Shown piece by piece: positions 4,764 to 25,578 of a DNA stretch of 39,594 nucleotides (positions are counted from its first letter, which is position 1; the number at the start of each line of letters is the position of its first letter). Source of the DNA: a virus (Duplodnaviria; Caudoviricetes); the IMG/VR virus record IMGVR_UViG_3300036803_000063, positions 1 through 39,594 of that record. One strand, 5' to 3'. Below the pieces are notes generated by a model. It had not been told where the DNA came from. It was given only the letters and a program-made list of their open reading frames with translations, and did not search any database. Both the position numbers and the translations under genes were made by a program.

Positions 4764-6635
4764 GTGGCAGCCGGGCAGGTTCACCTCACCGGGCCACAGG
4801 TGGCTCAACTCGTCGTCGAGGCGAACTTCCCGCCGCAGGACCGCGTAACAATGGTCGCGATCGCTAAAGCCGAATCAAGCTGGACCGTAGACGCGATCAA
4901 CACCGCCAACAGCAATGGCACGGTGGACCGTGGCCTATTTCAGATCAACTCTGTTCATTCCCAGTACAACGCCCAACAGCTGCTGACCGACCCCCGTTAC
5001 AACACGACGGCCGCTAAGGCGATCTACGACGGGCAAGGGCTCAAGGCGTGGTCGACCTACAACGCCGGTCAGCACGTCCCCTACATGCAGGAGTCCGCCC
5101 AGGCAGTCGCCAACGCTGGTGGACTCGTCGGCCTGCCGCCCGTGCCTGGCTCCGACCCGGCCAGTCAGACACAGGTCTACGGGCCGCTGGCCAGCGAGGA
5201 AGTGCGAGCGGGCAAGGGCGTGGCCCTGGATTTCAACTCTCCCACGGCGGACGGATCCCTCGGGGTCATCTATGTCCTCGGTACCCAGATCAGCAACAAC
5301 GTCGGGCCACTAATAATCGAGGAACCGAAGTTCACCGCCGGCATGACCGTAATCCCGCACATGTCGTTCTCGGTCATGGATTTCAACTACAACATGAGCA
5401 ACCTACAGTTGTTCGATTCCGGCAACCGAGTCACCTGGCGCGACGCCGACATGCGCACCGACACCGTTACTTTCGCCCCCGGCACCCACGGACAGGGGGA
5501 GGCCGAAGTCGTTGCCGAAGACGGCATCGTGCACGCGCTACGACTTCTCCGGGGGCCGAACGTCGTCAACAACATCGACGCCGTCACCTACGTGTTCCAA
5601 GAGCTGTCCACCGCCGGCTACGACCCCACGAAGTACCTGCTCGGCGAGGCCGTGCCCACCCAGTCATCCATCAGTCGCGACGTGTGGGATCCATCGATGG
5701 GCGCCGTCACCGAAGCCGAGTACCCCAGCGCCTGGACGACGATCAACCGCCTGGCAAAAGAACTGGGCAAGTGGTGCTGTATCTCCGGGCGCCGGCTCAT
5801 CTTCGGGTCCGCCCGCTTCTGCATGGCCTGGGCTGCCGCCAGCCCGGTCTACCTCGGCTGGGACCGCGCCCCGGCCGAGGAGGCAATGATGGACATGCCG
5901 ACCACCACCCGCACGACCATCGCCGAACGGCAGATGATCCTCCAGGTCAAATGCCGTGTCCCGCACGCGCGGGCGAACCTGTTCCGCCCCGGCGTGCCCG
6001 TCAACGTCTACGGCGTCGTCGGCACCGTCTACGGGCCTAACAAGACCCCAGCGACGCGCGCCAACCCGCTGCTGATGATGGTCACCGACATCGAGCACGT
6101 GCTCGCCACCGACACCGACGGCGCTGATGTCACCCTCGTCGAACCCGTCGACCCCTACCCGCACCCGCCGGGATCGACGCTGAACCCCAACGATCCGAAG
6201 GCGCCGCTGGCCGGCGCACTCGGTATCTCCGGCGGTGGCGCCGACGGACAAGTTGAGTCATTCGTGCGCAATGCGCTGTCTCAGACCGGCAAGGCCTATG
6301 TCTACGGGGCGCAGCCGTCGGCCACGGACCCGAACCCGAACAGCTTCGACTGCTCAGCACTGGTGCAGTGGGCGGCCACCCGTGCGGGTATCGCGGGGGT
6401 GCCCCGAACGTCACAGGCGCAGCACGCGTGGTGTGACCAGATCTCGGCGACCACGGCGATCGCCACTCGTGGCGCGCTGCTGTTCCCGTCGACCTTGACG
6501 CACGTGGCGATCTCGTTGGGCAACGGGAAGACCATCGAGGCTTCGACCGAGGGGGTTCCGGTCGGTCAGCTCAACGCCAACACCAGCCGTTTCCAGCTCG
6601 GCGGCCGGCTCAAGGGCGCATTGGGGTACCCGTAA
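4764..6635 (+). CDS. Baseplate hub fused to N-terminal lytic transglycosylase and C-terminal NlpC/P60 peptidase
   Basis: AIAKAESS...DRGLFQINSVH...GLKAWSTY (SLT); GKAYVYGA...FDCSALVQWA...HVAISLGNGKTIEAS (NlpC/P60 Cys-His); central hub identity inferred from position. Confidence 0.85.
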   Translation: MAAGQVHLTGPQVAQLVVEANFPPQDRVTMVAIAKAESSWTVDAINTANSNGTVDRGLFQINSVHSQYNAQQLLTDPRYNTTAAKAIYDGQGLKAWSTYNAGQHVPYMQESAQAVANAGGLVGLPPVPGSDPASQTQVYGPLASEEVRAGKGVALDFNSPTADGSLGVIYVLGTQISNNVGPLIIEEPKFTAGMTVIPHMSFSVMDFNYNMSNLQLFDSGNRVTWRDADMRTDTVTFAPGTHGQGEAEVVAEDGIVHALRLLRGPNVVNNIDAVTYVFQELSTAGYDPTKYLLGEAVPTQSSISRDVWDPSMGAVTEAEYPSAWTTINRLAKELGKWCCISGRRLIFGSARFCMAWAAASPVYLGWDRAPAEEAMMDMPTTTRTTIAERQMILQVKCRVPHARANLFRPGVPVNVYGVVGTVYGPNKTPATRANPLLMMVTDIEHVLATDTDGADVTLVEPVDPYPHPPGSTLNPNDPKAPLAGALGISGGGADGQVESFVRNALSQTGKAYVYGAQPSATDPNPNSFDCSALVQWAATRAGIAGVPRTSQAQHAWCDQISATTAIATRGALLFPSTLTHVAISLGNGKTIEASTEGVPVGQLNANTSRFQLGGRLKGALGYP

Positions 6636-14469: not shown

Positions 14470-15111
14470 ATGATGACCCGCATGCGCCGTGCCCGCCGTC
14501 ACCTCCCATGTGTCAACGACCGTACCGCGATGATCGCCGCCCTGGTGCTCATTTTCGGCGCGGGAACCGTCACCGTGCTCGGCCTAACCAATGATCGGGA
14601 TGCGGCGCGGGTGGTCACCTCCCAGCGCGACACCGTGGTCATCCAACGCGACGCGGCGGTAAGCCGATCCTTAAGCCTGGCCGAACAGGTGCGCCAGGCG
14701 TGCTCGGCCGGCGGCACCACGGCGACCGAACTGGCATCAGCGTGCGAGTCGGCCAACCAGGTGGTCGCCACACCCATCCCAGGACCACGAGGCATCCCGG
14801 GCACCCCGGGCTCTGTCGGACCGAGAGGCCCCGCAGGGCCGGCAGGACCGCCCGGCCTCAATGGCAAGGACGGAGCTCCAGGGGTCAACGGCACTCCGGG
14901 CAAGCCGGGGACTGACGGCAGAGACGGGGCGCCGCCAGCCGGATGGGTGGTGTCCAACGCCGACGGATCGGCTATTGCGTGCACGCGGGTGGCGAACTTC
15001 CATCCGACCGCGCCCCGCTACATCTGTGGCGATCCGGCCGCCGCACCCCGTCCGAAGACCAGGACAGCTCCGGCACCGACCACGAGTGCGGCACCGACTC
15101 CGGGAGGTTGA
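14470..15111 (+). CDS. Membrane-anchored collagen-like protein (start may be 14482)
   Basis: One TM segment, helical region with a Cys pair, 17 consecutive Gly-X-Y triplets, second Cys pair, Pro/Thr-rich tail. Confidence 0.8.
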
Positions 15112-15480: not shown

Positions 15481-15518
15481 GCGTCGCACGGGTGCCGAGG
15501 CGACGTCTGGCCGATGAT
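15481..15518 (+). promoter_or_regulatory. Late-type promoter (GCGTCGC-N25-GATGAT-N7-GTG 15526)
   Basis: Motif and spacing similar to the other copies. Confidence 0.45.
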
Positions 15519-15525
15519 GACCCGC

Positions 15526-16098
15526 GTGCGGGCAACCACTGATCCACCACCGATGCAGGACTGGTCCGCTGAACGGCTCCAAGCTGCTCAGTTCGCGGTG
15601 GAGCTGTACCGGGGCGAGTTCGTCAAGCGTGGCGACAACGATGCCCTGATCGAGACGGCAGGGGTGATTTTCCGCTTCCTGACTGGCGCGGTCATGGCGT
15701 ACTTCGAGTTCGGCACCGTGCTCGAACAGGCCACCAAATATCCAACAGATGATCAATTCGGAGGATCAATGTCTCAGCTGAAGGACACCCAGCAGGTCGA
15801 CATCACCGTCAAGGCCCGCGACGCTAAGGGCTTCGAGGTCGGCGACGACCCCACCACCACCGCCGACGACATCCAGTGGAGCTCGGCCGACACGACCATC
15901 GCCACCGTCAATGTTGGCGCCGACAACCGCACCGCCACCGTCGTAGCCGGCAACGTGGGCTCCACCGTGGTCACAGCCACCCTAGGTCCCATCGTGGTCA
16001 CCCAGGCCGTCGACGTCATCGCCGGTGACGCGGTCGCCATGGAGATCAGTGTCGGAACCCCTACCGACCAGGCGCCAGCGGCGCCAGCGGGCCCGTAG
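15526..16098 (+). CDS. Helical N-domain plus Ig-like (Big_2-type) domain, long form (ORF track start 15514)
   Basis: IQWSSADTTIATVNV...ATVVAGNVGSTVVTATLG is a Big_2-like signature; frame is open from 15514. Confidence 0.7.
   Translation: MRATTDPPPMQDWSAERLQAAQFAVELYRGEFVKRGDNDALIETAGVIFRFLTGAVMAYFEFGTVLEQATKYPTDDQFGGSMSQLKDTQQVDITVKARDAKGFEVGDDPTTTADDIQWSSADTTIATVNVGADNRTATVVAGNVGSTVVTATLGPIVVTQAVDVIAGDAVAMEISVGTPTDQAPAAPAGP
15769..16098 (+). CDS. Nested in-frame Ig-like protein, short form (109 aa, MSQLKDTQQ...)
   Basis: GGAGGA at 15760-15765 just before an in-frame ATG at the domain boundary. Confidence 0.65.
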   Translation: MSQLKDTQQVDITVKARDAKGFEVGDDPTTTADDIQWSSADTTIATVNVGADNRTATVVAGNVGSTVVTATLGPIVVTQAVDVIAGDAVAMEISVGTPTDQAPAAPAGP

Positions 16099-16107
16099 TT
16101 CCCGACT

Positions 16108-16148
16108 CGCCGCGCCCGGGGGTTCCCGCCGGACCCTCGGGCGCGGCG
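16108..16148 (+). terminator. GC-rich hairpin, probable intrinsic terminator or mRNA stabiliser
   Basis: CGCCGCGCCCGGGGGTTC pairs with GGACCCTCGGGCGCGGCG (~18 bp including G-U), 10 nt after the stop; no U-tract. Confidence 0.7.
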
Positions 16149-16166: not shown

Positions 16167-16265
16167 ATGAAGAAAATCCTAGAGGCGATCGGCCTGGCAA
16201 AGCTGATCAAATGGCTGCGCCGTAAAGACGACAACCCGCCACCGCCGGAGGACGTACGCAGTTGA
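16167..16265 (+). CDS. 32-aa cationic amphipathic peptide (not in ORF track)
   Basis: MKKILEAIGLAKLIKWLRRKDDNPPPPEDVRS; GGGGG upstream; its stop overlaps the endolysin start (TTGA). Confidence 0.6.
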   Translation: MKKILEAIGLAKLIKWLRRKDDNPPPPEDVRS

Positions 16266-17179
16266 GAGGTCTCGATTACGCTGGAGGTATCCCGCCCGCC
16301 GCAGCTATCAGCGCGGCGGGCTACCGGTTTGTCGTGCGCTACCTCACCCCCGGCGGACCCGCACTACCTGGCAAGCTGCTCACCCGCGCCGAGTACGCCA
16401 GTCTCATCGCGGCCGGTGTCGCGGTCACCGTCAACTGGGAGACCAGCGCCATCCGAATGAAGGGCGGCCACGACGCTGGAGTGGCCGACGCCCGTGACGC
16501 CGACGCGGCAGCTCGCAAGATCGGACACCCCAGCAGCAAGCCCATCTACTTCTCGGCCGACTGGGATACCACCCCAGCCGACCAGATCGCTATCGACGCC
16601 TACCTGCGTGGCGCCGCCGAAGTACTAGGCCCCGACCGGGTCGGCGTCTACGGCAGCTACTACGTCGTCAAGCGATGCCTGGACAACGGAACCGCGCGTT
16701 GGGCGTGGCAAACCCTGGCCTGGTCCGGCGGACAGACCGACCCCCGCGCGCACATCTTCCAGCGCATCGGCACCGTGTTCATCGCCGGTGTCCCGTGCGA
16801 CATCAACGAGTCCAACGCTGACTATTTCGGCCAGCACGTCTACGCCCCTCCGGCCGCGTTAGGAGTCCTCGACATGCCAGCGGGTGAATGGGTTACCACT
16901 CCGACGCCGTCGAAACACAAAGTCACTTTCCCGGTCGGGCCGAAGGTGTCCAGTCTCGTCGACAAGGGCTGGCTGGGCATCGACCCCGACCAGGTAGCGA
17001 ACCTGAGCGTCACCGCCCGAGGCGGCGGCGCCGTGCTCGCCGCCTGGAATGAGACGGCCCCGGCTGACCGGCGCTGGTGGAAGGAACTGCCCGACGGCAC
17101 CGAGACGTGCACCGTGTTCATCTCCACCCCGCTGGTCGGTGTCGCGGGCTGGTGTCTTGAGCTTAAGGCCCGCGCATGA
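16262..17179 (+). CDS. Endolysin: DUF1906 (Rv2525c-like, GH25-related) glycoside hydrolase plus C-terminal domain
   Basis: GLDYA, GYRFVVRYL, KLLTRAEY, PIYFSADWD, VGVYG, WQTLAWSGG and CDIN motifs; GGAGG RBS; next to the holin. Confidence 0.9.
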   Translation: MRGLDYAGGIPPAAAISAAGYRFVVRYLTPGGPALPGKLLTRAEYASLIAAGVAVTVNWETSAIRMKGGHDAGVADARDADAAARKIGHPSSKPIYFSADWDTTPADQIAIDAYLRGAAEVLGPDRVGVYGSYYVVKRCLDNGTARWAWQTLAWSGGQTDPRAHIFQRIGTVFIAGVPCDINESNADYFGQHVYAPPAALGVLDMPAGEWVTTPTPSKHKVTFPVGPKVSSLVDKGWLGIDPDQVANLSVTARGGGAVLAAWNETAPADRRWWKELPDGTETCTVFISTPLVGVAGWCLELKARA

Positions 17180-19037: not shown

Positions 19038-22000
19038 ATGTCAATGGCCATTGCCATCGACTTCACAAACAGCCCAAACGCGGTACCGGTAGCCGGTCAG
19101 GGCTCCGCTACAACCACAGCATTCACCCCGCAGGCCGGCGAATTAGTCGTCATCGTTGTCAATACCGGATGGTCGGCCGGCGGCACAGTCACCACCTCGA
19201 TCAGCGACTCGGGATCCCACACCTGGACTAAGAGCGTTACCGTCGCGGGCGTCGGCAGTCTCGGTGGCACGTCCACCATCTATACCTGCTACTTCGCCAC
19301 CTCTCCCGGCTCCATCACCGTCACCGTCACCACCGCAGGATGGGGATCTGGCGGTGGCGGCCTACACATTGACCCGTTCACGCTGTCCGGGTGCGCAGCC
19401 AGCCAGACCGGCGCCGCCACCGCGACGAACAAAGCGACCACCGGCACATCGTCCACCGTGGCGATCACAACCACGACGACCGGCTCATTCGTCATGGGCG
19501 CGATCAGTGAACCAACCGGCACCCGAACTTTCACGCCGAACGCGATCAGTCAAGTCGACAACACGTTCAATGACACCACCGATGTTTGTGTAATGCTCTG
19601 TTGGGACGCTAAGTCCCTTACCGGCACCCCAGGGTCAACGACTTTCGGTGGCACATGGAACACGTCGTGCGCATGGAACATCTGCGCCCTAGAGATCCTG
19701 CCCTCGACGTCCACATCGGCGTCCCCGACAGCTGGCAACGCGGCGGCATCCGCTGCGGCGAAAGACTCAACACCCGGGATCGCGCCCGCGTCCGGTGCGG
19801 GCGCGGCGAGCGTCGCAGCCCAGGCGCCCAGCGTCAGCGTCTTTGCCAGCGCCGGATGCGCCACCGCCAGCGCGACCGCCCAGGGCGCCACCGGGCAGGT
19901 AGCGGGCGCGGCCGGGGCCGGGAGTGCCAGCGGCGCGGCTCAAAACGCCAGCGCCACCACGAGCTCCACCCCGACAGCGGCCACCGGCACCGCAACAGCA
20001 CCCATTCCTGCCGCGAGCATCGCCGCCCCAGCGGGCGCTGGTGGTGCCAACGCGGCAGGACGGAGTCCCGTCGGACAGGTTGCCCCCGTCGCCGGGACAG
20101 GCGCCGCCAGCGGCACAGCGCAAACCCCCGGTGGCACCGCCACAGGCGCCGCCCGGGCGGCCAGCGCCACAGCAGCCGCCCAAAATCCTGGTAGCACCGT
20201 CGCGAACACTCCCCCGGCGGCCAGCGCCACAGCAGCCGCCCAAAACCCCGGCGCGAGCATCACCGCGCCGGCCGGGGCCGGGGCCGCCAACGCCAGCGCG
20301 AAGACGGCCACCGGATCTGCAGGCCCTAACGCAGGCACGGCGACCGCCAGCGGGACGGCGAACCCGCCGAGCTCGGCGAGTACAGCGACCGCGAGTACAG
20401 CGACCGCCAGCGGGACGGCGAACCCGCCGGGCTCGGCGAGCGCGACGACTGCCAGTGCGGCGACCGCCAGCGGGACGGCGAATCAGCCGAGCTCCGGGGT
20501 CACCGTCGTCTCCGGTGCGGGCACTGCCACCGGAATCGCGCCGGGACCATTCGGGGTCACCGCTGTCATCGGACTAGCCGGAACCGCCACCGCAAGTGCA
20601 GCCGCCCAGAACACCGCTGCCGGGGTTACCAGTGTCTCCGGTGCCGCAACGGCGGCTGGCACCGCCCAGGGCGCCAATACCGTGCTGGTGGCCACTCCGG
20701 GCACCGCCAGCGCCAACGCCAGCGGGCTGAACGCCGCCGGAGTCACCGCCGTCATCGGTGCCGCTGGAGTAGCCGGCGCCAACGCGGCCACGCCGACACC
20801 CAGCACGCGGATTCTCGCCTCCACACCCGCTGCAACGGGTATCGCCAGTGCACCCACCGTTGTGCCCTCGGTTGCGACGATCGCTGGGGCCGGGACCGCC
20901 AGTGGCGCGGCCGTCAACGCGACCGGGGTCACCGCTGTCACCGGCGCCGCCGGAGTCGCGACAGCGACCGCCAGCGCACCCACTGCCATGCCGGCCGTCG
21001 CGGGGACATCAGGCGTAGGTACCGCCATCGGAACGGTGACCACACCCAGTGTCAGCGTCACCTCGACCGCAGGCACGGCGGCAGCTACCGCCACCGCGAG
21101 CACGCCGACCGCCACAGTCACCGTCGGGGCCGGGGTCGCCTCGGCCAGCGCGACAGGCAACGTCGCGGCCAGCAACATCGCACCCACGCCAGGGGTCGCT
21201 GCCGGCACTGGCATCGCGCCAACCCCCCTGGCGGGCACCGCTAATGTGGCGTTCGGTCAGGCCGGCGTCGCCTCGGCCAGCGCCACCGTACCCAGTCCCA
21301 GCGTCGCGATCACCAACGCTCCGGGGGTCGCACTAAGTGCGGCGGCAGCGGGCAACACCACCGCTGAGATCATTACCCACGCGGGGATCGCCAGTGCCAG
21401 CATCACCGCCCCATCGCCAGCCGTGCACTTGGCGGCCCAGGCGCAGGGCGCTACCGCGACCGGGACCGCACCGACACCCGGCGGTACCGGGATCGGTCAT
21501 GCCGGGATTGCCAGCGCGTCAGCTGCCGCTCTCCCGTCGAACGCTCACCTACTGGCCGTATCCGGCACTGGCGCGGCCGGTGCGACGGTGCCGGGCGCCA
21601 CGGGCGCGGTTGCCCCCCGTGCAGGCGTCGGTGCGGCCAGCGGAGCGGCGAAAAATGCGACCCCCATCGGGACCACCAGCGCCGGGATTGCCACGGCCAG
21701 CGCGGTCATATTCGATCCGACGCCCAGCGTGCGAGCTGTCCCGTCGGTCGCTGCGGCAACCGTCAGTGCCTCGGACTCCTCTGTCGACGTGGCCGCGCGC
21801 GCCCGGGTCGCCGCAGCCCTCGCCGCAGCCCTCGATGCAGTCGGTCGCCATAGTCTCGGCAAGACCGACGCCGGCAAGGTCACCGGCACGGTGGTCCTGA
21901 TCGCCGTGGCCGCCGCTACCGCCAGCGTCACCCAGACAACAGCGGGCAACGGCATACGGACGAAAACGGCGACGGGCAACGTTACGCGCGCCAAAACAGC

Positions 22001-22049
22001 GGCCGGCGACGTGACTGTGTCGCGGGCCGCTGTCGGGTCAGTCAGTTAG
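19038..22049 (+). CDS. Long fibre protein: ~225-aa beta domain plus ~35 20-aa Ala/Thr/Gly/Ser repeats
   Basis: AGGAG RBS (start 19038 or 19044); strict 20-residue periodicity. Confidence 0.8.
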   Translation: MSMAIAIDFTNSPNAVPVAGQGSATTTAFTPQAGELVVIVVNTGWSAGGTVTTSISDSGSHTWTKSVTVAGVGSLGGTSTIYTCYFATSPGSITVTVTTAGWGSGGGGLHIDPFTLSGCAASQTGAATATNKATTGTSSTVAITTTTTGSFVMGAISEPTGTRTFTPNAISQVDNTFNDTTDVCVMLCWDAKSLTGTPGSTTFGGTWNTSCAWNICALEILPSTSTSASPTAGNAAASAAAKDSTPGIAPASGAGAASVAAQAPSVSVFASAGCATASATAQGATGQVAGAAGAGSASGAAQNASATTSSTPTAATGTATAPIPAASIAAPAGAGGANAAGRSPVGQVAPVAGTGAASGTAQTPGGTATGAARAASATAAAQNPGSTVANTPPAASATAAAQNPGASITAPAGAGAANASAKTATGSAGPNAGTATASGTANPPSSASTATASTATASGTANPPGSASATTASAATASGTANQPSSGVTVVSGAGTATGIAPGPFGVTAVIGLAGTATASAAAQNTAAGVTSVSGAATAAGTAQGANTVLVATPGTASANASGLNAAGVTAVIGAAGVAGANAATPTPSTRILASTPAATGIASAPTVVPSVATIAGAGTASGAAVNATGVTAVTGAAGVATATASAPTAMPAVAGTSGVGTAIGTVTTPSVSVTSTAGTAAATATASTPTATVTVGAGVASASATGNVAASNIAPTPGVAAGTGIAPTPLAGTANVAFGQAGVASASATVPSPSVAITNAPGVALSAAAAGNTTAEIITHAGIASASITAPSPAVHLAAQAQGATATGTAPTPGGTGIGHAGIASASAAALPSNAHLLAVSGTGAAGATVPGATGAVAPRAGVGAASGAAKNATPIGTTSAGIATASAVIFDPTPSVRAVPSVAAATVSASDSSVDVAARARVAAALAAALDAVGRHSLGKTDAGKVTGTVVLIAVAAATASVTQTTAGNGIRTKTATGNVTRAKTAAGDVTVSRAAVGSVS
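19725..21855 (+). repeat. Degenerate 60-bp coding tandem repeat (~35 units)
   Basis: CGACCGCCAGCGGGACGGCGAA at 20341, 20401 and 20461; CCAGCGCCACAGCAGCCGCCCAAAA at 20161 and 20221. Confidence 0.85.
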
Positions 22050-23900: not shown

Positions 23901-24092
23901 ATGCCCCTTACGCAAGATGGCTACGTCGAAGGCGCGCCGCACGGGACGTTGGCGGGCCTCCTCCAATGGAAGTGCCAGTGCGTGTGCTGCACGGCGGCAG
24001 GCAAGGCCCGCACACTGAACAGTCAGATCCTGCCGGCTACGCCGAAATCACCCGCACTGGAGGCCGCGCCTTCACCCCCAGAGCCGGAATAA
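23901..24092 (+). CDS. Small HGT...CxCxxC zinc-binding protein (63 aa)
   Basis: PHGTLAGLLQWKCQCVCCTAA; TACGGT-N7-ATG leaderless layout; 3' end overlaps the terL 3' end. Confidence 0.5.
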   Translation: MPLTQDGYVEGAPHGTLAGLLQWKCQCVCCTAAGKARTLNSQILPATPKSPALEAAPSPPEPE

Positions 24093-25578
24093 GCCCCACA
24101 GCGGCCCACACCCCAGCGTCGAGCTCGTTCGGGCTCTCCAGGTCACCCGGTACCCAGGACGTGAAACCGTCCTCCAGACCAGGCAGGGCCCCCACGATGT
24201 GCGCCCGATGCTGCTCGAACACCCCGGCCACCGGCTCCGCCCGCACCCGCTTACCGTGACTCGCGTGCACGCTGGTGATGCGCGGCAGCTTCGAGTCGTT
24301 CTCTTTCGCCACCATCCGCAGCATGGTCGTGCACAGGTCCCCGCCTTGGTTCGTCTCCACGACCATCGCATCAGCCGCCCAGTCCTCGGCCGACTCGATC
24401 GCCCGCAACGCCCACGCGCGCGGCGACCCCCGCATCGTGTAATCCCCAAGAAAATACAGGTGCGGGCCTTCAACTTTTGCTTTAGCTCCCTGCCACCCGT
24501 GCATCGGCGCCCCACCCAAACCCACCGCAACGATGCCGCACGCGTCGGACGTGTCGTTGATCGTCACCGCCGGGTCGACACCGACCACTAGGCGCCGCAG
24601 GATCGGCACGAGCTCGCCGTCCATGACCCGCGTCGACTCGATCAAAGCCGCCGTGACGAGAGCGCCCTCGACCTCGTCGAGCATCTCGCCTTCGAGCTCC
24701 TGGCGCCCCGTGGTGGTGCCCGCGTAGCGGGTCTCCATCTCCCGCAGGAACGCCGCCGAGAGGTTCGCCGCGTTCTCGTAGGTGGACCCGCGCGTAGTGA
24801 CCACCGACGGATCCCCGCGCTTAGCCCGCTCCAGCAGCTCCCGCAACACCACCGCCGACCGGCGCGGTGTCGTGGTGACCACCATGCGGGGATGGCGCCC
24901 GATCCGCAGCGCCGGCAACAGCGCCTGATCCCACAGATCCTTCTGACCGGGCCCGAAGCTGGACAGCTCATCGAGCCACGCGCCCGAAAGGTTGTAGCCA
25001 CGCAACCGGTCCGGGGCGTCCGCGCTGGCCAGCACGATGCGCGACCCGTTGTGCAGGTGCAGTACGTAGTCGGCTTTGTTGTAGGTCCGCAGGTCTTCGC
25101 CCAGGGCCACGATCAGACCCGACGGCCCCTCGGTCGCGATCTTGCGTGCGTCACCGAACGTCGGGGCTACCACCGCGTAGTCCCCCCGGACGGTGGTAGC
25201 CCACTCGATCAGTACGTTGGAGCCGGTCCACGTCTTACCGAACCCGCGCCCCGCGACAATCACCCAGTACAACCATTTGTCACCAGGTGGCGGGATCTGT
25301 GACGGCCGGGCCAGATGGCGCCAGCGGCGCGGCGCGCGGGGTTCGATCTCCCGCAGCGCCGCCAGGCTCGGCGAAATCTCATCAGCCCAGCCGGGCAGTT
25401 GCTTGACGCCTAACGCGTCCCAGTCCACCCCTGCCCGCCGGCTGGGCGGAGCGAGCAGGTCAGCAGTGGTCGGCCGAGCCGGAATCGACTTTATGTACTC
25501 CAGCGCAGCAGCGAAGACAGCAGCGTCTGGTTCGGCGGCGCCCGCACGGGTGTAGGCGCCCCGGACGGGGCTCGGCAC
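24037..25578 (-). CDS. terL: Terminase large subunit
   Basis: Q motif (ARPSQ), Walker A AGRGFGKT, LRG..L...WLDE Walker B, TTTP motif III, GSTYEN, nuclease VGVDPA and VETNQGG. Confidence 0.93.
   Translation of the reverse strand: MPSPVRGAYTRAGAAEPDAAVFAAALEYIKSIPARPTTADLLAPPSRRAGVDWDALGVKQLPGWADEISPSLAALREIEPRAPRRWRHLARPSQIPPPGDKWLYWVIVAGRGFGKTWTGSNVLIEWATTVRGDYAVVAPTFGDARKIATEGPSGLIVALGEDLRTYNKADYVLHLHNGSRIVLASADAPDRLRGYNLSGAWLDELSSFGPGQKDLWDQALLPALRIGRHPRMVVTTTPRRSAVVLRELLERAKRGDPSVVTTRGSTYENAANLSAAFLREMETRYAGTTTGRQELEGEMLDEVEGALVTAALIESTRVMDGELVPILRRLVVGVDPAVTINDTSDACGIVAVGLGGAPMHGWQGAKAKVEGPHLYFLGDYTMRGSPRAWALRAIESAEDWAADAMVVETNQGGDLCTTMLRMVAKENDSKLPRITSVHASHGKRVRAEPVAGVFEQHRAHIVGALPGLEDGFTSWVPGDLESPNELDAGVWAAVGLIPALGVKARPPVRVISA

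Follow-up and report, generated by a model that had tools for sequence, protein, structure and literature searches.

Donor-strand filaments are familiar from the surfaces of bacteria and archaea. According to the passages cited here, the subunits of chaperone-usher pili are incomplete beta-sandwiches lacking the last strand, the donor strand is N-terminal and a chaperone is required (PMC10903470); in the Elr pilus, also described as chaperone-dependent with an N-terminal donor, a strand of the neighbour completes the sandwich (10.64898/2026.10.17.759780). Type V pili, represented by FimA and Mfa1 of P. gingivalis, are described as using a C-terminal donor strand, which enters the next subunit and displaces the N-terminal strand filling the groove. 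That strand is removed from the lipoprotein by a protease, and a separate, uncleaved anchor pilin ends the chain at its base (PMC13655056). For the TasA filaments of Bacillus subtilis, TapA is reported as a minor component with a complete Ig fold that donates the first strand (PMC10151520, PMC10903470). Among phages, a C-terminal extension of BppU is described to complete an Ig-like sheet of BppA in Tuc2009 (PMC4742702), and long flexible capsid fibres are reported for phages 7-7-1 and phiCbK, the structure of the 7-7-1 fibre being called unknown in that source (PMC12796354). In the full-text literature searched, which mostly leaves out subscription journals, no description of a phage-encoded or a two-start donor-strand filament was found.

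The window, by which the whole 39.6-kb stretch of DNA analysed is meant, is a phage contig of 66% G+C and constitutes the entire assembly. Its left part contains tail and baseplate genes, its right part genes that by eye are of the replication type. Upstream of the gene considered here are a collagen-like gene and some small proteins predicted to be membrane-bound; a 32-aa ORF, an endolysin gene and a holin gene lie downstream of it, so that in the window it takes a lysis cassette position. Phage-genome searches identified relatives in the Streptomyces phages Satis, Kradal, Quantum, EhyElimayoE and Frankenweenie, in the Nocardia phages NBR1, NOC3 and KYD2, and in Ralstonia phage RP13; composition and these named relatives point to an actinobacterial host. 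In a profile search the family comprises 382 clusters at E <= 1e-10, tandem arrays among them. The favoured reading, held with some reserve, is that this one gene has two starts and would yield short Ig subunits chaining to each other together with a long form capping the chain, probably tied to the virion. The parts of the gene are listed in Table 1. In the long form they are arranged as helical hairpin, strand-A copy, linker, Ig core and donor tail. P0001, whose numbering is used for residues in the covariation analysis, has no Cys.

Table 1. Features of the two-start gene and its flanks in the window
Feature	Position	Strand	Remarks
Upstream element, putative late leaderless-type promoter	15481..15487	+	pattern derived post hoc
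-10-like hexamer GATGAT	15513..15518	+	7 nt 5' of GTG 15526; kept in L002
Long form, 190 aa from likely leaderless GTG	15526..16098	+	
N-terminal helical hairpin	15565..15681	+	predicted helices 5-19 and 29-43 (AF2)
Internal copy of strand A	15688..15732	+	predicted strand 48-58, pLDDT about 94 (AF2)
Internal Shine-Dalgarno sequence GGAGGA	15760..15765	+	anti-SD pairing, GGA bias
Short form, 109 aa: Big_2-type Ig core without strand A, plus C-terminal donor strand	15769..16098	+	
Ig core, strands A' B C D E F G	15772..16020	+	predicted strands 2-84 (AF2)
C-terminal donor strand, corresponding to strand A of the next repeat	16030..16074	+	array register, covariation
Strong 3' RNA hairpin without U-tract	16108..16148	+	z -3.6

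The earlier note on this DNA had described an in-frame GGAGGA-ATG defining a 109-aa product inside an ORF of about 190 aa. This arrangement is present, with GGAGGA at 15760-15765 and ATG at 15769 separated by a spacer of 3 nt (tca); a spacer as short as this counts against the filament reading. Conservation of the internal ribosome binding site and Met in homologs, which had been suggested as a check, was borne out. Forty loci were compared; besides the one in the window, 30 were on viral contigs, 5 on metagenome contigs and 4 in annotated phages, contig duplicates having been removed. A start codon is located at most two codons before the conserved Gln of a Q-L-x-D motif at 39 of these 40 interrelated loci (~0.12 expected per locus), the 5 metagenome loci having been retrieved by patterns, one of which fixed residues before Gln. 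After thinning to 60% identity, it is found at 18 of 19 loci. ATG is used at 15, GTG at 23 and TTG at one of the 39 loci; in the lone exception (L049), Val is encoded by GTC and an ATG is present three codons upstream of Gln.

Codon usage around the internal start follows the same direction. Where Val stands at -1 relative to the conserved Gln, it is specified by GTG in 24 of 25 cases, compared to 37.7% in the gene body, and Leu at -1 is specified by TTG in both of two cases. Gly in the five upstream positions is encoded by GGA in 37 of 44 cases but in only 11 of 276 in the body. Pairing with an anti-SD motif has a median energy of -8.0 kcal/mol at the internal start, whereas the median is -3.7 kcal/mol when 350 other start codons in the same frame are taken; the window gene gave the best value tested (-9.5 kcal/mol), equalled by none of its eight other in-frame starts, although the internal start is top-ranked by this measure at only 11 of the 39 loci. 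The internal start is conserved and under selection. Judged from these sequence features, both starts are very probably used, and dual in-frame starts are familiar in phages, as in lambda S and T7 gene 4.

The two starts would also account for the annotation of the same gene as a protein of about 100 or about 180 aa. Among 141 aligned representatives (50% identity), 131 are annotated as the long and 10 as the short form, and 120 of the 131 passed a lenient residue-level test for the internal start. At one locus (L051) neither a long form nor a strand extension is evident. In RP13 a second, unannotated SD-ATG lies before ORF216 (L058:7913-7988) and adds 21 in-frame residues, resembling a bare beta-strand, to the annotated protein of 115 aa. 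The preponderance of long annotations and the long-form model, which is a complete domain, would be in line with a protein of which the long form alone matters, that is, an Ig decoration protein completed in cis, with an unused internal start and a tail that is vestigial or binds another protein. This is very improbable given the codon-level selection on the internal start, the conservation of the tail (of 142 sequences, 135 have its G and 126 its Q) and its covariation with the family's own strand B.

For the long form, several starts are conceivable. Within the ORF at 15514-16098, translation from GTG 15526 gives 190 aa, and that from ATG 15514 gives 194 aa, the latter being the call carried by databases; candidate starts other than GTG 15526 are 15514, 15517 and 15553. 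The earlier claim of an own late promoter and a 3' hairpin held for the hairpin, which reaches -45.4 kcal/mol (z -3.6) with none of 200 shuffles being as stable, whereas a sigma-70 scan revealed no promoter and a leaderless one is plausible. A pattern derived after inspection of three genes (GYGTCRY, 24-30 nt, xAxxxT, 5-8 nt, RTG) has six matches versus 1.6 expected, four of which are at gene starts, GTG 15526 among them. Its upstream element recurs with similar spacing before the gene starts at 4764, 11654 and 25578. In L002 both promoter-like elements are found ahead of the homolog with a distance of 25 nt between them, and hexamers similar to GATGAT are located before the long starts of NBR1, KYD2 and L026. 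Since the pattern falls on gene starts and the same two elements precede the L002 homolog, a leaderless late promoter at 15526 is plausible from sequence, and GTG 15526 is the likely leaderless start of the 190-aa form.

An identical 12-mer, present only twice in the window (14470-14484 and 15514-15528), begins the collagen-like gene and the two-start gene, and is probably a -10 element shared ahead of leaderless starts. The genes at 4764, 7658, 23070 and 25578 are without a Shine-Dalgarno sequence and have a -10-like hexamer 5-7 nt 5' of the start codon; leaderless initiation therefore looks common in the window phage. The terminase large subunit gene (24037-25578, - strand), which has the same promoter-like pattern as the two-start gene, is opposite in strand to the tail genes and lies among the replication-side genes. 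At the 3' end, the hairpin has no U-tract and was not among the terminator-like sites found; an intrinsic terminator with a U-tract was dropped as a candidate, as none was found. A downstream hairpin with z <= -2 occurs at 18 of 37 loci.

Structure predictions assigned the core to a Big_2-like beta-sandwich, the top Foldseek and VIA matches being SbsC, LigA/B and lambda gpV. A Pfam scan gave no match for the window protein; Big_2 (PF02368) was matched in 3 of 24 homologs (best E 6.1e-5), and in the Atlas one cluster carries Big_2 on 17% of its members. The best of eight PDB sequence matches were ordinary Ig arrays, and there was no close solved relative among them. In the AF2 model of the short form (pLDDT 88), predicted with the family alignment as input, the tail is unpaired and strand B is cut to five residues. 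The model of the long form (pLDDT 86) exhibits two long helices followed by a paired strand at 48-58; here, strand B has ten residues and the tail is without a partner. A strand A ahead of A' in the same chain is absent in the short form; only the long form has one, in the shape of the internal copy.

These models were compared with solved domains. The short model superimposes on SbsC with a VIA Z of 11.6 (rmsd 1.5 over 78 residues). Its matches start at residue 564 of SbsC, 170 of lambda gpV, 103 of LigA and 218 of SU10, and those of the long model, beginning at the internal strand, at 555, 161, 93 and 209, respectively. The short-model matches thus start 9-10 residues later in the solved domains, and the internal strand therefore appears to stand in for the missing strand A. 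It is well supported by the models that the short form is a Big_2-type Ig without strand A and with a free C-terminal tail, and supported that the long form completes the Ig in cis with its internal strand. The proposals that the short form is an incomplete Ig and that the long form supplies the first strand in cis agree with the predictions: in the short model strand A is missing and the tail is not packed in cis, and in the long model the paired strand matches strand A of solved Igs. Of the outcomes named beforehand as speaking against the idea, a tail packed in cis was not seen in the model and an unconserved internal start was not observed.

The internal strand and the C-terminal tail resemble each other, as the earlier note had noticed from a pair of 15-mers. 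The two stretches, 15688-15732 and 16030-16074, align without gaps and are identical in 6 of 15 residues and 25 of 45 bases. For a single protein the match is modest (p=0.015 against a fixed tail); an equally good pair of 15-mers occurs somewhere in 756 of 1000 shuffled proteins, and the repeat in one sequence was dropped as stand-alone evidence. A single-sequence match is significant in just 7 of 17 homologs, and the exact AV..GT..QA identities are partly luck. At the level of the family profile, the similarity is strong. Among 146 windows (mean -9.0, sd 5.5), the best match of the tail profile is exactly the internal strand with 16.0 bits, followed by 5.3 bits, and the duplicated strand is in this way recovered in homologs, as had been proposed for checking. 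The conserved pattern consists of an alternating hydrophobic strand, then G, and Q five residues on; of 131 long homologs, 102 have this G in the internal strand and 118 have the Q.

The tail was compared with tandem Ig arrays, nine of which are contained in the top 150 profile matches. In many of the array repeats the family profile starts at A', passes G and goes on to cover strand A of the repeat that follows, with no gap in the clearest cases; in other array repeats, including most in P0250 and P0252, it ends at G. The internal strand aligns with the first strand of the Ig domains of SbsC, lambda gpV and LigA. By its sequence register, the tail corresponds to the strand A that a tandem Big_2 array would place there as part of the following repeat.

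Covariation was analysed by a mean-field approach with 260 sequences (effective number 140) and with 142 representatives or clusters at 50% identity. The tail couples antiparallel to strand B (T92/Q93-D185, V95-P183, A101-A173) with a mean Z of 1.58; none of 12 row permutations exceeded 0.86. For the BC loop (103-107), coupling is strongest to V148, N147, Q186, D91 and A145 (mean Z 1.17, nulls <=0.05). From the strand topology, these partners sit at the opposite end of the ten-residue strand B, and on this topological basis the couplings are read as contacts between subunits. That opposite poles of the Ig domain covary, as head-to-tail chains predict, is supported by the alignments. Q72 of the internal strand couples to K105, as does the equivalent Q186. 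Coupling of the internal strand to strand B is weak; the predicted register ranks first with a Z of 0.77, but nulls reach up to 0.72. The nulls are lenient, because row permutation removes relatedness as well, and the stronger point is that the covariation matches a register fixed beforehand by structure.

The insertion of the tail into the next subunit, as originally suggested, is consistent with both sets of couplings, the choice between cis and trans being read from topology. Covariation of tail and strand B alone is silent on this choice and leaves room for a short form that is a complete monomer with the tail folded back into its own groove. Such folding is hardly credible: AF2 leaves the tail unpaired with the same family alignment, and for strand A to run in its native direction the tail would have to start at the pole opposite the end of strand G, with a linker of about three residues. 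Donation of the strand in trans is highly likely. As to the kind of assembly, the covariation is equally compatible with an open chain, a closed ring and a reciprocal dimer. Short subunits might swap tails into closed dimers or small rings, the long form entering a bounded heteromer, and no long filament would result; the tail-strand B and pole-to-pole couplings fit this too. It is nevertheless improbable, since the linker from G to A has the same length as in tandem arrays, a long form bound to a short one should still have a free tail, and a conserved self-completed form with one free tail would fit best at the end of an open chain. Tandem Big_2 arrays form extended rods, and an open chain rather than a ring is considered probable.

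For the favoured two-start filament, the following course of events is proposed. One late transcript likely starts at GTG 15526. Translation from this leaderless start would supply some long form, and a larger amount of short form would come from the internal SD start, the short form being likely abundant and the long form likely rarer. The short form would correspond to a Big_2 array repeat cut between A and A', beginning with A' and ending with the next strand A. In the models, its own groove is out of reach of its tail. Short subunits would join a chain by accepting its free tail in their empty strand-A groove, each tail running antiparallel to strand B of the next subunit, and the product would be a non-covalent tandem Big_2 stalk with an estimated rise of ~4 nm per subunit. 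The groove of the long form is filled by its own strand A, and therefore the long form would fit only at the open-groove end of a chain. There it may seed or stop growth; either way that end would be capped, and chain length would depend on the ratio of the two forms. Such length control by the ratio of starts remains tentative. The long form would probably also tie the chain to the virion.

How this attachment could be achieved was considered next to the variation of the N-terminal part. The helical domain, for which an anchoring function had been suggested, is present in most members but missing or replaced in RP13, L047, L049, L014 and L057, and a partner for it was not found. The extensions in L047 and L049 are short and include the strand, and L014 and L057 have different N-parts; the universal core is the strand plus the second start. 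As the helical domain is not universal, the term anchor describes an inferred role only, and the helical hairpin as a virion anchor is a guess, supported by the gene context and by the virion proteins that neighbour the fold. A membrane anchor was dropped, peak hydropathy over 19 residues being 1.55 and a value of 1.8 being reached by 2 of 131 homologs. Searches with the N-domain gave no named family (best Atlas score 0.76). Weak PHROG matches linked 4 of 24 members to phrog_993, and another, at E 0.004, pointed to an ADP-ribosyltransferase family; both assignments were set aside. A search for stand-alone N-parts gave two matches, both apparently long-form fragments on contigs under 700 bp.

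Variation is also found behind the tail, where 12 of 142 representatives have extensions of more than 40 residues. Satis gp30 (L022:8878-9699) and Frankenweenie gp35 (L023:2965-3780) continue for ~85 residues past the donor tail, and by eye this part looks like a second Ig/PKD-type domain. In L014:3127-3696 and in P0216, long Pro/Ala/Thr-rich extensions follow the tail.

The genomic position of the gene varies, which counts against the main reading. Neighbours were surveyed with PHROGs using 136 ORFs at 23 loci (129 nearest neighbours and 7 chosen by hand). Head genes are neighbours at 9, tail genes at 2 and lysis genes at 3 of the 23 loci, while at 9 no structural neighbour was recognised. 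In Satis and Frankenweenie the two-start gene immediately follows the major capsid gene, and in RP13 it is located among tRNAs. The homolog at L026:2277-4576 is surrounded by the head module but encoded on the other strand, at a distance of two genes from that for the major capsid protein, and resembles an inserted cassette.

A virion appendage held by the N-part appears rather likely on this basis. The donor-strand filament could also be real without being such an appendage, either as an intracellular polymer or one released by lysis, or with its free tail in the groove of another virion protein and the long form as the distal tip. The variable position including lysis cassettes and the tRNA region, the variable N-part and the frequent occurrence as a stand-alone cassette with its own hairpin would suit this alternative. 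It is regarded as unlikely, though it deserves attention, because the solved phage folds most similar to the models are those of virion proteins (lambda gpV, SU10, Douge, N4, T5 pb6), head-module neighbours form the largest recognised class, and no second acceptor-type Ig was found in the six frames of the window, from which head genes are absent.

Genes for assembly factors were looked for as well. Neither chaperone nor usher genes were detected by a Pfam scan of 18 other window proteins or by the PHROGs scan of the 136 neighbours, many of which had no match in this phage library. That no chaperone is evident to hold short subunits from early polymerisation counts against the filament reading. 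In the genome collection, none of 25 pattern matches was confirmed. Protein, filament or virion data on the gene were not found; the genome announcements of Satis and Frankenweenie mention neither head fibres nor proteomics nor this gene, and no structural paper on NBR1 or KYD2 was among those listed in the full-text literature.

Other genes of the window have features of their own. The 32-aa ORF between hairpin and endolysin gene (16167-16265) has a basic, amphipathic-looking N-terminus and overlaps the TTG start of the endolysin gene. The latter (16262-17179, PF08924) contains an in-frame AGGAG...ATG at codon 205 (16860-16876), right behind the catalytic domain, and is a possible second dual-start gene yielding its C-terminal domain by itself. 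The late region ends with a gene (19038-22049) whose product of 1003 aa is rich in Ala, Thr and Gly, contains numerous short repeats and gave no Pfam match.

Taken together, support is good for the dual start and for the incomplete Ig, an open filament is likely, and a virion role and length control are plausible. If correct, a candidate identity would be at hand for a class of thin phage fibres, translation would replace the protease or chaperone step of pili, and a self-assembling display rod of 100-residue units bringing its own cap would be available. A wider view, rather less likely than not, is that one-gene phage fibres without chaperone or protease are widespread as modular display filaments, with a circularly permuted Ig repeat chained through its C-terminal donor strand, a self-completed base subunit, a start ratio setting length, swappable N-anchors and extra C-terminal domains such as the second Ig-like one in Satis. 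The gene occurs in cultured phages, and the idea is therefore open to direct tests.

Comparison with the described systems revealed likeness in parts. The parallel to chaperone-usher pili drawn in the earlier note had the polarity reversed: unlike these and Elr pili, the short form lacks its first strand and has its donor at the C-terminus, and neither a chaperone nor an export signal is evident, the short form beginning directly at strand A' without a segment for a signal peptide. With TasA/TapA the gene would share a minor component, already complete in its Ig fold, as the source of the first donor strand. There, however, the donor is N-terminal and the proteins are secreted and encoded by separate genes, while here the donor is C-terminal and the cap is part of the same ORF; no sequence or fold match to TasA or TapA was among the matches listed. 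Likewise, no donor-strand Ig filament was among the structural matches listed for the short and long models. The joint of BppU and BppA in Tuc2009 is a single heteromeric one made by a beta-hairpin and involves neither a homopolymer nor a dual start. The fibres of 7-7-1 and phiCbK are a possible functional parallel only, both phages being absent from the matches of the phage-genome searches.

The fold is the same as in the lambda gpV C-domain, LigA, SbsC and the SU10 surface protein (VIA Z 9.6-11.6 with the short model), and so is the repeat register. In Big_2 and phage Ig arrays, the repeats are complete and covalently strung, whereas a single, circularly permuted repeat with non-covalent chaining is proposed here. 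As in type V pili, the donor is C-terminal, judged by covariation and array register, and through its long and short forms the gene would arrive by translation at the two states found there, an uncleaved end subunit and a subunit without its N-terminal strand. In contrast to type V pilins, the first strand would be omitted by a second translation start in one gene and not by a protease, there is no lipoprotein Cys but a conserved start signal between strand and core, and the subunit is a single Big_2 Ig of ~85 residues plus tail instead of a two-domain fold. The two-start gene would work most like type V pili, yet belongs to no known pilus family.
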